NCBI GenBank assembly: GCA_003990765.1
Contig: RBNJ01000219.1
Location: forward strand, 1 to 36,439
DNA: 36,439 bases
DNA from: Jimgerdemannia flammicorona
Taxonomy: Eukaryota
Reading direction: 5' to 3'
The position numbers and the translations under genes are program-made. The notes below the pieces were generated by a model. The model saw nothing but the letters and a program-made list of their open reading frames with translations, ran no database searches and had not been told where the DNA came from. The stretch's first letter is position 1; each line of letters begins with the position of its first letter. Below, in pieces: positions 22,624 to 27,336 of this stretch.

Positions 22624-24341
22624 TCATAATTTTATCTGCAAGCTCGGGTTTCCTCCCATACGCAACCTCCGCATTCCAATACGTCTTGTACGTCGTGCCT
22701 GGCAAAAGCTCGGCCGTTGCCTTGCTGGTCATGGCACTGTACTCATCTTCGCCGAGGCCGAGAGCGACGAGCATAACTGGTCTGAGCGATTTGTAACTCG
22801 TGATGGTGTTCTGAAGCGGTGGGCAAGCGGGAGAGTGTTGAGTGGGAGGTTATCGACAACTCGGGATCATGAGAGAAGGAGAAGATGGTACCTTTGCCGC
22901 CGCCGCACCGATATCGCCGCCCCACCCGACGGGGACGGAGATAGTTTTGTGAACCACGGACTCCAAGCCTGCATTCTCAAGGTTTCGAGAGCGGTGAGAG
23001 ATGCAGGCCATGTTGATGCCACGTAGGCCGAACATATAATGCACTTGAGAAGCCGGGAGAAAAAATTTAGATATAGATGCAAATATAATGTATCTATCGG
23101 CAAACTCTTGCTGAGCAACCTACGTTTCTCGTCGTATGCCGTCGCCGCAGGGCCGCTGTTGTACAAGCGCCCATCGGTATCAACTGCGATAAGAATATAT
23201 GTTGATCGACGTGCAATGTCAGAAGAACATCTCTCAATCAAAGGGCGATTTTGCGATCCCTCCCCTAATTCCGACTTGAAAGGAAAGAAAGAGGGAGCGA
23301 GAACTCCCAACCAACGCAACTTACTCAGTTCGACCCACCCACCCCTCTTCGTAACCCTCACGAGCTCCGCATATACTTCGGGCCACTCCAGTTCGCGGAA
23401 CGAACCCACCTGCATTCTCTGGAAGACGTAGTCGAACGTGTCATCGGGGAATGGCAGGCCCTTCAGCGTGTTGGCAATCACGAAGCTACAGTTTTTAGGG
23501 GCACTGGCAACGTAGGGTGCAAAAACGTCGATCATGTCGGAGCCCGTGAAGCTGCTATTGGCGTAGAGCTGTGCCATCTCCTAGAAGCGGGATAGTGCAG
23601 AGCACATAGTGTCAGAGGCAGCTGTTTTGAGACGAAGCATAAAGGAGCAAAAAATGTGACACGTTGCACGCACAATTGACCATACTCCTGTTCCGCAACT
23701 ATGGGAGTTAATAAACAATGTATGATTAACGTATCCTCTTGAAGGAGAATCTTCGTGTTGCATGATACTAACCCCACATCGAGCACTTTGATACCCTGCT
23801 GGAGTCCCTCACGCACCGGCGCCACGAAGTACCTTATGATTGTAAAGGAAAGCAAAGAGAGCCGTTAAAAGAATGGCAATTGACATGGATGAAACGAACA
23901 GAAGATACTTGGGTGTTTTAACCACCCTTACCCGTTAAATGCAGCGCTGCGCACAATTGAAACCCCGAAACGCAATATAATATGATGATTCAGTTTCAAG
24001 CTCGGCCGAGACAGAACTCCCCAGCATTCGATCTCAAATTCTTACCGGAATATATAGTGCTTTGTGGTCATTCGAACATTAGTAAAGCCTATGTCAAATG
24101 CACGGACATGATAAAAGCCCCACTTGGATAATTCATTGATCCTTACCTGAAGGTTCAATCGTGAGCTCTCGGCGTCGTCATTCGGCAAAGCATAAGCCGG
24201 ATTACCGTCGGATCTGTAGCCACGCCCTTCAAGCCATCGGAAGCCCTCGGGCAGGGAATCGTCGGTGCTCTTGGGAGATGTGTTGTAATCCGCCTTGCGG
24301 GACTTGGAACGTTTGAGAAGCTTGGAGACTTGGTGGCCCAT
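22624..24341 (-). CDS. Class I SAM-dependent methyltransferase with N-terminal MGxxxS motif, 9 exons
   Basis: Exons 24341-24147, 24059-24046, 23946-23932, 23832-23773, 23698-23674, 23580-23325, 23183-23124, 23043-22892 and 22810-22624 are in frame. Motifs YALPNDDAESSRLNLQHY, VLDVGCGTGVWS, LPFPDDTFDYVFQR, LVRVTKRGGWVEL and PVGWGG. Confidence 0.88.
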
Positions 24342-25048
24342 ATTTGATAATAGTGCAAAAAGAAGGAAAAACGAGCGCGGCTGGATATGTATGGGGAACT
24401 AGGCCCTGTACCACTTGACATTGTAGATGGATCGAAGCCACAACCTTGATGTTAATGAATCTAACTAGTTTGTGTTGGGCAGCTGACTTTATAAACTAGG
24501 AACCGTCCTACATGCGGTGCCTGATAACAGAGTCAAACGCGCAGAAGTTTGAGAATATAAACCCAAAGTTTGATGCCCGCACACCCAACTTAGCCATATA
24601 ACAGATGATTGTTTTATCCCATTAGAAGGATCTTTTATCCAATTTGTCGTGATATTATCATAAGGCAAAAAAAAAAAAAAAAAAAAATGCGGCATCATCT
24701 ATTGCAACATATCTCTCTCCCTTTACCTACAATTCCTATGGTGGTAATAATCACCGTTTTATTCGCTTGGTTAAAAAGAAAATGTGGTGGAATGCAAATG
24801 GGATTATTGTGGACAATGCACAAGAAAAAAAAAAAGAAGAAAGAGAAAGGAGAAAAAAAAAAATGCAGGAGTATGAGTCCTTCAAAAGAGATGGATTGAT
24901 GTGCAAAATGCGGAAGATTAAACAAAACGGGTAATTTTGAGAGAATATGGCCTGCATGGTCATCTCCCCACGTGGACCGACACAATTACGTCACGCAGTG
25001 GCTTGAGAAACCGACAGAACGCGCCAATCTTTAAACCAACCTTCGAAC

Positions 25049-27155
25049 ATGCCTCGCGGAGCACTGAGTCTCACCCCTGGTACGCTCCTGAGTCTCACCC
25101 CTCCCGCAAACCGCGAATTCACTAACCACTGACCATTGTCCGTTTGCTTAACCTCCCTTTCCCATGCAGTTGCTATAAGAGGTCTTCAGGGCATCGGCAC
25201 CATTGGTGAGCATTACTGTTTTAAGTGTGTCCCTTTCCTATGATTGTTGTTCTGATCAAAGTTCGTCGCGCCAATAGACATGACTGCCTTCGTTCTCGGT
25301 GCTTTCGTCGACCCTGCTCAGAAGCTACGAACTCAACGTGCAATTGTGGACCGCGGAGGCGAACCGCGATGGAACCAGACATTGTCCCTGTGCGTGTTAA
25401 ACTCTCGATATTAATGGATTGTCATAACTTCTCGGCCAAATTATCAAAAAGTCGGATTTTTTTTTTTTGTGGATTGCAACACACAGTGACATCCAAGACG
25501 TACATACGCAGCTCTTTGTTGAAATATTTGACGAGAACCAGAGTTCGATGGATGCAGTCGGTAATTTAAGCTGGCTTTTTGAAGTATCGAGCTAAGATTA
25601 CATCCTCTTGCGATTTTATTCAACACTCTTACCAAGAGGTCATGAAACTCTTCAACTTTAGCCGGCGTGCCTCTCCCTCTTGAAGAGGTCCTTTGCGCTG
25701 GCTTCCTTGACGCCTGGATCCCGATGCAGCGAGCCGATGGCGGTTCTGCGGGGGAGCTGCATCTTACATTCAAGTTTGTCGACCAGGTTTGTCAAGCCGT
25801 TTGTTGTTCACCACCTCCTTCCACAAACTTTCTGAGTTGGATTAATGGAGACTTACACATTGACTGTGTGTCTCAGTGGTGTGAGAGATTCGGCGCCCTT
25901 TCTCTCCATTTTGACGTTCATTTTTGTCCCACTGCTCGCAGGGTGTCCCCGCTAACATCGATGAGCAGCAATCGGAGATGGCCGTTGAGCCCGAAGGCCC
26001 GCGGGCCACGAAACTCCGCCAAACGTTTGAAAAGTCTCTTTCGAAAACCATCAAGAACATTAGGTATTAATAAGAATTGGACTGGGACAGAGAACAAGAC
26101 CCTTACTTTAGTGCAACTCATCTTTTGTACGATGAGTTTGCTGATCATTGAAAACACGCTTCTTCAGTTACGAGAAATTAGCGCAGAGTTTTCCACATAT
26201 CGCCAACGACTCACCCGAGTCCCTGCAGAGCGCTCATCAACAAGTCACAACTTTTCTGCAACAAAGCGTTCAGGTACCTATTCAATCCCATTTGACCCAT
26301 GACATGCCGCTACATCAACATCCAGTAATATCGAACTTCGTCTTTTTTATACGACTCCGCATGACAGGAAGAGTTTCAAAATTTGCTGGAGACCAAAAAT
26401 CTTATCCGAAAGCTGAACGAATTGGACATGCTTATCGATGCGGCAAGGAAAAATAAACAGGCGAGACTAGGAAAGCTGGTACGGAACAGGTATGCGTCAG
26501 CGGATTGCTTAACATCTTTTCAAGTATAAGCAAATGGCTTGATGGAGCATGAAACCTGTGTTTTATAGAATTTCTGCACACTTTTCTGCCACGCACAGTG
26601 CCGACATTACACCTGATATTGCCATTCGCGCGCGAACAGTACCGATCAAGCAACAAGAGTTCCAACGACTGCAAGATGAGCTCGCGAGGGTATGTCAACC
26701 TCATTCGCTGCTGATTGCCTTTGGTTGACTACTATTGCCAATCCCAAGCACAGATCAAGCTTCAATTATGAAGCCGATTACTAACATTTCTCTGCATCTC
26801 GCCACGCTATTTCCGACCAGGTCCGACAAGAGAACAAGACCCTTATGAGCGAGCTCGTGGCGAAGAAGACACGCCTCGACTTGGTCAAAACGACAGTACG
26901 AGAAATCTCGAACGAGCTGAGCCAGGTCGGTTTGTTGTCATTCCCTTTATACCGTACTCGAAAACAAGTTGGCCCACCGTATTCATTCTATTGAATCTAT
27001 TCTGTGCTTGGAATCCCTTTACCCGTGCCCACCTTTAGGCCGTTGAGATTTCGCGTCGCATGCCAATTGACGATATGCAGCACCTGATCGATGAGATGGT
27101 ACCATCTTTGCAGCGTGGGCAATGGGGTTTTGGTGAGGGCAGTGTCGTCCGTTGA
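25049..27155 (+). CDS. NNF1: C2 domain - Nnf1 (MIND/Mis12 kinetochore subunit) fusion protein, 11 exons
   Basis: C2 exons 25049-25079, 25170-25205, 25278-25389, 25487-25560 and 25662-25786 (MPRGALSLTP..KLRTQR..GGEPRWNQTL..LFVEIFDEN..DAWIPM..SAGELHLTFKF). Nnf1-like exons 25942-26063, 26168-26273, 26368-26489, 26599-26689, 26821-26925 and 27039-27155 (GPRATKLRQTFEKSL..SYEKLAQSFP..EEFQNLLETKNLIRKLNELDMLIDAAR, then coiled coil). Confidence 0.78.
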
Positions 27156-27261
27156 ATGGCAAGAGCTGTTCCATTGGTGTACAATAATGGGAAGGAAACC
27201 TGGTGTTTTGTAAGGTATGGGCATTGCCTATCAACTTTTATCATGTAATATTATCACATAT

Positions 27262-27266
<5 letters not shown>

Positions 27267-27335
<69 letters not shown>
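27267..27335. repeat. Long poly(T) tract
   Basis: Uninterrupted T run downstream of the C2-Nnf1 stop. Confidence 0.9.

Positions 27336-27336
<1 letters not shown>

Follow-up and report, generated by a model that had tools for sequence, protein, structure and literature searches.

A C2 domain joined in frame to the kinetochore subunit Nnf1 in fungi of the Endogonales

The Mis12/MIND complex is a conserved hub linking the microtubule-binding outer kinetochore to the centromere, and its four subunits are normally small and purely helical proteins. A locus of the root-associated fungus Jimgerdemannia flammicorona (Endogonales, Mucoromycotina), an organism that is hard to work with, raises the question of whether one of these subunits, Nnf1, has gained a folded C2 domain at its N-terminus, from where such a domain came and what it may do there. 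The locus lies at positions 25049-27155 of the forward strand of a 36,439-nucleotide (nt) stretch of DNA (contig RBNJ01000219.1), which was analysed as a whole and is referred to here as the window. A first-pass annotation of the window, made from its letters alone, had proposed that a C2 domain and Nnf1 are joined in frame in one gene. The two halves indeed form one gene, which is transcribed and spliced as one mRNA, and the fusion is common to Jimgerdemannia and Endogone; the 11 exons, the GT..AG introns, the spliced contigs and the domain matches agree on this. Taking anatomy and origin together, and leaving the role of the C2 domain aside, it is considered likely that the mRNA yields a 346-residue protein of the layout C2-linker-Nnf1, which is a MIND subunit of the Endogonales and has a single origin.

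The gene model rebuilt from the sequence comprises 11 exons within 25049-27155 (+), separated by ten introns of 72-155 nt, all of them with GT..AG ends and with compatible phases throughout. Downstream of an in-frame TGA (25004-25006), the first ATG in frame is that at 25049. Exon 5 ends in GAC CAG/gtttgt with no stop and is followed by a phase-0 intron of 155 nt (25787-25941), the longest of the gene, which separates the C2 and Nnf1 halves, exactly as had been read from the letters. Retention of this intron shifts the frame and leaves it open for about 500 nt more, to a stop at ~26300, and a C2-only protein would therefore be without a natural end here. The exon model proposed earlier gave a reading frame of 1071 nt (356 codons and a stop); its ten introns were borne out, and its one error concerned exon 9, which begins at 26599 and not at 26569. 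Exon 9 has two in-frame acceptors 30 nt apart (26568/26569 and 26598/26599), of which the downstream one is backed by two RNA contigs, by a second public model of the gene (P0002) and by the Endogone orthologue, and the upstream one is used by the public model of the window's own contig (P0001); alternative splicing at these acceptors is possible. The features are given below, X1 and X2 being the two public sequence runs from which the contigs were assembled.

24939-25048, +, 5' untranslated region (UTR), minimum extent; the X2 contig begins at 24939 and the X1 contig ~19 nt before the ATG
25049-25079, +, exon 1, C2 (splice model)
25170-25205, +, exon 2, C2 (splice model)
25278-25389, +, exon 3, C2 (splice model)
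25487-25560, +, exon 4, C2 (splice model)
25662-25786, +, exon 5, C2 (splice model)
25942-26063, +, exon 6, linker and then the start of the Nnf1 part (splice model)
26168-26273, +, exon 7, Nnf1 (splice model)
26368-26489, +, exon 8, Nnf1 (splice model)
26599-26689 in RNA (26569-26689 in the first-pass and P0001 models), +, exon 9, Nnf1
26821-26925, +, exon 10, Nnf1 (splice model)
27039-27155, stop included, +, exon 11, Nnf1 (splice model)
27156-27254, +, 3' UTR, minimum extent; the X1 contig runs to 27254 and the X2 contig to 27198
25049-25786 (exons 1-5 and introns 1-4), +, C2 part, residues 1-126; Pfam, phmmer, Foldseek and ESM Atlas, with the four introns skipped in the contigs
25787-25941, +, junction intron 5; GT..AG, a 155-nt skip in one contig per run
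25942-26001 (first part of exon 6), +, linker, residues 127-146; low model confidence and poor conservation
26002-27155 (rest of exon 6 and exons 7-11), +, Nnf1 part, residues ~147-346; Pfam, phmmer and AlphaFold2

Intron 6 (26090-26105) and exon 10 (26830-26845) each hold one exact copy of the same 16 nt, GAGAACAAGACCCTTA, left perhaps by an internal duplication or arisen by chance.

Transcript evidence came from two small public runs of two different studies, each holding about 0.3 of the sampled words of positions 24900-27300; their kind is entered as 'RNA?', by guess, and 27255-27300 was left out of the contig mapping as repeat. One contig per run lies on the locus (1162 nt in X1, 1312 nt in X2), and each skips all ten introns with GT..AG ends; since the DNA of the locus has these introns, the contigs derive from spliced RNA. 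Both cross the 25786/25942 junction by skipping 155 nt, the shorter of the two flanks matching over 123 letters, so that the join proposed between the C2 and Nnf1 halves is found in the RNA of both runs. After exon 8 both contigs skip 109 nt as against the 79 modelled, which moves the start of exon 9 to 26599, removes 10 residues and gives the RNA-supported form its 346 residues. In the 110 nt preceding the ATG the X2 contig departs from the window by 8 substitutions and by 4 small deletions; elsewhere it differs by one letter in the coding pieces (in 25277-25389) and by four in the last piece, which reaches the 3' UTR, including a substitution at 27164 just after the stop. As the differences lie mostly before the ATG and are few in the coding pieces, X2 appears to come from another strain in which the coding region is conserved. 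Assembled contigs of this kind are silent on transcript starts, ends, strand, level and minor isoforms.

Two observations belong to the ends of the transcript. The part of the 5' UTR covered by X2 contains a short upstream open reading frame of 19 codons (ATG at 24947, TGA at 25004-25006), and a T-run of ~75 nt (27262-27336) lies directly past the mapped 3' end.

The same C2/Nnf1 junction is read across by all three public gene models of the fused protein. P0001 (307 residues), the model of the window's own contig, is partly wrong by comparison with the RNA contigs: its Met start lies inside exon 4, so that most of the C2 domain is missed, and it translates parts of introns 7 (17 residues) and 10 (13 residues) in addition to using the upstream exon 9 acceptor. 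P0002 (346 residues), from a second J. flammicorona assembly, is the same as the RNA form bar one I/V difference from the window. P0003 (319 residues), from Endogone sp. FLAS-F59071, has the same layout, with 55% identity at 100% query cover (BLASTP). A literature search, with subscription journals and supplements outside its scope, found, among the papers listed, none describing an Nnf1 or Mis12 protein with a C2 domain or the kinetochore of Jimgerdemannia. The earlier remark that no description of the architecture was known thus holds for these papers and fails for the databases, where the record of P0002, named 'Nnf1-domain-containing protein', already carries precomputed PF00168 and PF03980, unremarked.

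The N-terminal part is, by profile and by a predicted fold of the eight-stranded beta-sandwich type, a C2 domain. The Pfam C2 model (PF00168) matches residues 33-102 of P0002 with 29.1 bits (E 1.2e-6; cut-off 22), and gave no significant match to the single exons of the window, which are too short. Searches with phmmer aligned residues 2-126 with whole solved C2 domains at E-values from 1e-4 to 2e-3 (1wfj at 2-124; extended synaptotagmin-2), and Foldseek returned 35 PDB matches at E <= 0.001, with top rows that are all C2 domains at template modelling (TM) scores by target of 0.6-0.69 over ~125-140 columns. The solved domains matched over their whole length in sequence and fold include 1wfj (rice/Arabidopsis-type), extended synaptotagmin-2 (E-Syt2) C2A (4npj/4npk), dysferlin C2A (4ihb) and a Trichomonas C2 domain (9zk0/9bkw). 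The ESM Atlas model compared with C2 clusters gave TM scores by query of 0.80-0.87 over residues 1-130. These matches agree with the earlier reading that the C2 domain encoded by exons 1-5 is complete.

The C-terminal part is a full-length canonical Nnf1 by every sequence test run. The Pfam Nnf1 model (PF03980) matches residues 184-289 of P0002 over positions 1-109 of its 110 with 77 bits (E 1.7e-21; cut-off 23.7), and Endogone P0003 with 75.7 bits; the translation of exon 8, the only single exon of the window to reach significance, scores 31 bits (E 3.4e-7). The assignment of this half to Nnf1, which had been made from motifs, was therefore upheld by the profile. Among PDB chains, phmmer matched NNF1 of Saccharomyces cerevisiae (9s4q, E 9.6e-12, residues 142-305 of the query with 3-172 of the chain), of Schizosaccharomyces pombe (5wwl, E 1.7e-10) and of Kluyveromyces lactis (5t58, E 1.7e-8), and human PMF1 (8ppr, 5lsj; E 0.0047), the Nnf1/PMF1 matches ranging from E 9.6e-12 to 0.011. 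The likeness to these solved Mis12/MIND subunits is a near-whole-length alignment with residues ~142-346; they are without a C2 domain, whereas the fused protein has a C2 domain of 126 residues and a linker ahead of Nnf1. An AlphaFold2 model of the fused protein, calculated from a 48-sequence alignment with only four C2 relatives in it, is helical from residue 146 to 334 with a predicted local distance difference test (pLDDT) value mostly above 90; residues 141-330 are helical, with means over blocks of ten residues of 91-98 and a dip to 76-78 at 231-250.

Between the two halves lies an acidic linker with no K or R, whose residues 128-137 have pLDDT values below 50. Identity between the Jimgerdemannia and Endogone proteins is 64% in the C2 domain (77/120), 68% in Nnf1 (113/165) and 45% in the linker (9/20), a pattern which, as far as sequence comparison can tell, is that of two constrained domains with a free linker between them.

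The residues of the C2 half were also compared with those of three C2-only relatives, described below as the putative donor family. Two of the five Ca2+-ligand aspartates of the classical C2 pattern (loops 1 and 3), which we take to be the columns of D26 and D77, are replaced in both fusion orthologues (D26A and D77N) and are Asp in all three donors; in the Endogone model, the third Asp of loop 3 falls in a 6-residue gap. In 22 of the 119 ungapped columns both fusion C2 domains share a residue present in none of the donors. Of 49 columns invariant in the donors, 10 are changed in both fusion C2 domains, five of these at positions 22-29 (loop 1). The fused domains carry net charges of -7 and -11 and isoelectric points of 4.56 and 4.74, with 9-10 K+R residues where the donors have 12-14. 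In P0002 the 19-residue window of highest hydrophobicity is residues 15-33, in loop 1 and strand 2 (Kyte-Doolittle mean 1.37). Judged from sequence, such a profile is unlike that of a Ca2+-dependent or a polybasic lipid binder. Several of the solved C2 domains matched above bind Ca2+ according to the titles of their entries, and in this the fused domain differs from them by the two ligand aspartates it would have lost.

The distribution of the fusion was surveyed with a profile built from P0002 and P0003, searched with HMMER against 1.84 billion cluster representatives at E <= 0.001, which gave 625 matches with the best 150 listed; the survey is based on this search, as word-index searches gave only 2, 3 and 2 proteins. 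Among the best 150, two are the fusion itself (P0003 and P0001), 15 are long multi-C2 proteins (812-3909 residue class) that match in their C2 part only and were left unscanned, so that they could in principle hold other domains, and 133 were scanned with Pfam. None of the 130 Nnf1-carrying representatives among these 133 has a C2 domain at E <= 0.01; the other three are two C2-only proteins (P0017 and P0020) and one short protein without a match. A two-domain protein would score additively and rank high, and further fusions are therefore unlikely below rank 150. Names were sought for 20 proteins (the 16 best Nnf1-type matches, the two C2-only proteins and two Helotiales proteins discussed below) and found for 17. 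The 13 Nnf1-type proteins so named come from Calcarisporiella, Geosiphon, Bifiguratus, Cetraspora, Saitoella, Basidiobolus, Dissophora, Paraphysoderma, Actinomortierella, Pneumocystis, Ambispora, Gamsiella and Diversispora, with no member of the Endogonales among them; they have 190-268 residues and begin within ~70 residues of the Nnf1 match. No second Nnf1 of Jimgerdemannia or Endogone was seen in the protein databases, that is, among the best 150 of the 625 matches and the named proteins. The survey of orthologues suggested by the first-pass annotation thus returned the architecture, beyond J. flammicorona itself and among the scanned part of the best 150 matches, from Endogone only, and the fusion is, on the public sequences seen, confined to the Endogonales.

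Other composite Nnf1 proteins came to light in the same survey. Three proteins of Helotiales (P0107, P0109 and P0154, from Phlyctema vagabunda, Coleophoma crateriformis and C. cylindrospora) are Nnf1 proteins with 319-323 residues: Pfam finds an N-terminal Rad60-SLD/ubiquitin-like domain before Nnf1 in P0107 and P0109, and P0154, a cluster mate of P0109, has the record name 'Ubiquitin-like domain-containing protein'. They may represent a second independent gain of an N-terminal domain on Nnf1, or merged gene models. Three long 'Nnf1 fusions', with OST48 (P0030), with MOSC and CLP1 (P0036) and with a seven-transmembrane (7TM) receptor (P0055), look like merged neighbouring genes and not real architectures.

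The C2-only relatives of the fused domain among the matches scanned are P0017 (Endogone sp., 384 residues) and P0020 (J. flammicorona, 436 residues), and their layout recurs in P0166 (Glomus cerebriforme, 350 residues), so that the family is one of Mucoromycota; P0152, a cluster mate of P0020, has the locus-tag prefix BC938DRAFT, as does P0001. Like the fused protein, all members of this family have their C2 domain at the N-terminus, from the initiator Met. In the donors it is followed by a stretch of 170-240 residues in which P, G, Q, Y and S abound, and by a hydrophobic window near the C-terminus (Kyte-Doolittle means over 19 residues of 1.82, 1.16 and 1.64). They differ from the fusion in keeping the Ca2+-type aspartate pattern (all five) and in having the P/G/Q/Y/S-rich stretch and the hydrophobic helix where the fusion has Nnf1. 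On Pfam, the C2 domains of the donor paralogues score 67.7 and 70.9 bits. The ESM Atlas clusters nearest P0166 are plant C2 proteins of ~290-325 residues with scores below 0.9, which serve as a lead only. The C2 domains are related as follows.

Two fusion C2 domains to each other, 64% identity
P0002 C2 to the two Endogonales donors (P0020/P0017), 50-52%
Fusion C2 of Endogone to P0020/P0017, 42-44%
P0020 to P0017, 68%
Fusion C2 domains to Glomus P0166, 34-37%

In a maximum-likelihood tree rooted on Glomus (five taxa, ~120 sites), the fusion C2 domains form a clade with 100% ultrafast bootstrap and a stem of 0.54 substitutions per site; the clade is placed among the Endogonales donors, and its tips measure 0.16 and 0.41 as compared with 0.13-0.16 for the donors. 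These relationships suggest that the fusion would have arisen once, in the Endogonales lineage before the split of Jimgerdemannia and Endogone, through a partial duplication that joined the C2-encoding 5' part of a C2/proline-rich/hydrophobic-helix gene to NNF1. The Ca2+-binding loops would then have been remodelled in a burst of change, after which the domain would have been conserved. Donor similarity reaches profile position 144-145, ~five residues into exon 6, which gives a weak hint that intron 5 may have been inherited from the donor and that the breakpoint may lie inside exon 6.

Several points weigh against this account of the anatomy and origin. On the side of the transcript, the 'RNA?' label is guessed and the contigs are assembled; they show the spliced junction and are compatible as well with a shorter Nnf1-only transcript. 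The Endogone protein is a gene model known from annotation only, with a 13-residue insertion and the 6-residue gap at exon borders, and its C2 domain scores 17.8 bits, below the Pfam cut-off of 22. AlphaFold2 renders the N-terminal 126 residues beta-rich with pLDDT values of only 50-80, and at a predicted TM score (pTM) of 0.41 the arrangement of the domains is not given by the model. The Foldseek rows shown are all C2 domains with no Nnf1 chain among them, and the Nnf1 fold therefore rests on sequence. The tree has only five taxa and ~120 sites, and the placing of the fusion clade with respect to P0020 and P0017, at a node with 87% support, is not secure. That the fused gene is the only NNF1 depends on what the protein databases contain and on how complete their annotation is. 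The Ca2+-ligand positions and the location of head I, which enter into the discussion of function below, are background from the classical C2 pattern and from solved MIND structures.

With the anatomy probably as described, the fused protein would take the place of Nnf1 in the MIND rod. Head I, the CENP-C-binding, centromere-facing end of that rod, is built from the N-terminal helices of Mis12 and Nnf1. Residue 142 of the fusion aligns with residue 3 of yeast Nnf1, which would hang the C2 domain on a flexible tether of ~20 residues from the start of the first Nnf1 helix and so seat it beside the CENP-C site of head I. CENP-A and CENP-C are kept in the Endogonales, according to a preprint (10.1101/706580), and the canonical receptor is therefore taken to be present. 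The role favoured for the C2 domain, tentatively, is that of a Ca2+-independent protein-contact or regulatory appendage at the head I end. It is ranked ahead of a tolerated passenger, and a passenger ahead of a membrane anchor, because the Ca2+ ligands are lost and the surface is acidic. Should the domain have a lipid or a protein partner, the assembly or positioning of kinetochores would have gained a new input in this early-diverging mycorrhizal lineage.

That the C2 domain is a mere passenger is possible, if on the unlikely side. A partial duplication would, in that case, have put a new promoter, start codon and C2 exons before NNF1, and the domain would be tolerated and foldable with no specific role at the kinetochore. 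The long stem and the faster evolution of the fused domain relative to the donors fit such a history, as do the loss of the residues of the ancestral activity and the flexible, poorly conserved linker, from which a C2 domain could dangle harmlessly; other N-terminal additions to Nnf1 also occur in database models, such as the Rad60-SLD domain of the Helotiales proteins. However, identity of the C2 domain between the genera is near that of Nnf1 and well over that of the linker, the 22 shared derived residues are retained in both genera, and the open frame and the four introns of this half are intact in both lineages. If it is a passenger only, it shows the steric load that the head I end of MIND tolerates.

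The first-pass annotation had seen in the C2 domain a membrane-binding module by which MIND might hold centromeres at the inner nuclear membrane or the spindle-pole-body region in closed mitosis. C2 domains are typically lipid binders, and the fold is kept and conserved here. The donor family looks membrane-associated (the C-terminal 19-residue window has a mean of 1.6-1.8 in two of the three members), and the remodelled loop 1/strand 2 region is more hydrophobic and includes the top hydrophobic window of P0002. Against this stand the replacement of two of the five canonical Ca2+-ligand aspartates in both genera, and an acidic domain with fewer K+R residues than the donors, which is unfavourable for anionic membranes without Ca2+; moreover, by alignment and the geometry of solved MIND structures, a C2 domain at the Nnf1 N-terminus would lie on the centromere side and not at the envelope. 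The proposal of a tether to the nuclear envelope was thus weakened, and is now regarded as doubtful. A narrower version, in which the remodelled hydrophobic loop 1 holds the centromere-proximal end of MIND to the inner nuclear or spindle-pole-body membrane without Ca2+, appears improbable, more so than membrane binding in general. If true, a protein-lipid contact would tether the kinetochore directly to the envelope in closed mitosis; to our knowledge, a link of such kind has been described for no kinetochore.

It is very unlikely that the locus consists of two overlapping units, with an Nnf1-only protein from Met139 as the main product, expressed from a promoter within intron 5, and with the fused mRNA as a minor read-through. 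An ATG for such a product does exist at 25978, 36 nt into exon 6 and just ahead of the Nnf1 fold, and the contigs are compatible with further transcript forms. Exon 5, however, has no stop and retention of intron 5 only prolongs the frame, each run has just one contig at the locus and it is the fused form, and the C2 domain is conserved as coding sequence. Met139 is, furthermore, Val in Endogone, where no Met lies between residues 1 and 246 of the protein, so that an Nnf1-only start is excluded there and an Nnf1-only product is unlikely as the conserved form. It is scarcely credible that the fusion is an artefact of assembly or of an annotation that merged adjacent genes, for although other 'Nnf1 fusions' in the databases look merged, here two assemblies, a second genus and the spliced contigs of both runs share the same junction, and the halves lie only 155 nt apart with canonical splice sites and matching phase.

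The fused C2-Nnf1 gene bears on the evolution of the kinetochore. It presents a verified, transcribed case, conserved in two genera, of a folded non-kinetochore domain on a MIND subunit, attached at the end of Nnf1 that, in solved structures, receives CENP-C. The donor gene is identifiable and the date is bounded to the Endogonales, and the fusion is therefore a clean natural experiment in the gain of a kinetochore part. A parallel may be drawn with bridgin, a lineage-specific addition to the kinetochore linker layer of Basidiomycota (PMC7794384). In both, a fungal lineage has added a new component at the interface of outer kinetochore and centromere; bridgin is a separate protein, whereas the C2 domain is fused to a core MIND subunit in a lineage that, by the source cited above, still has CENP-A and CENP-C.

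Upstream of the gene, A-runs and A/G-rich runs lie at 24668-24688 and 24830-24863. The upstream neighbour, at 22870-23580 (-) and perhaps including 24045-24398 (-), encodes a methyltransferase-domain protein (Methyltransf_25/11, E ~1e-6); as it lies on the opposite strand, the two genes probably have in common a divergent promoter region of ~650 bp.

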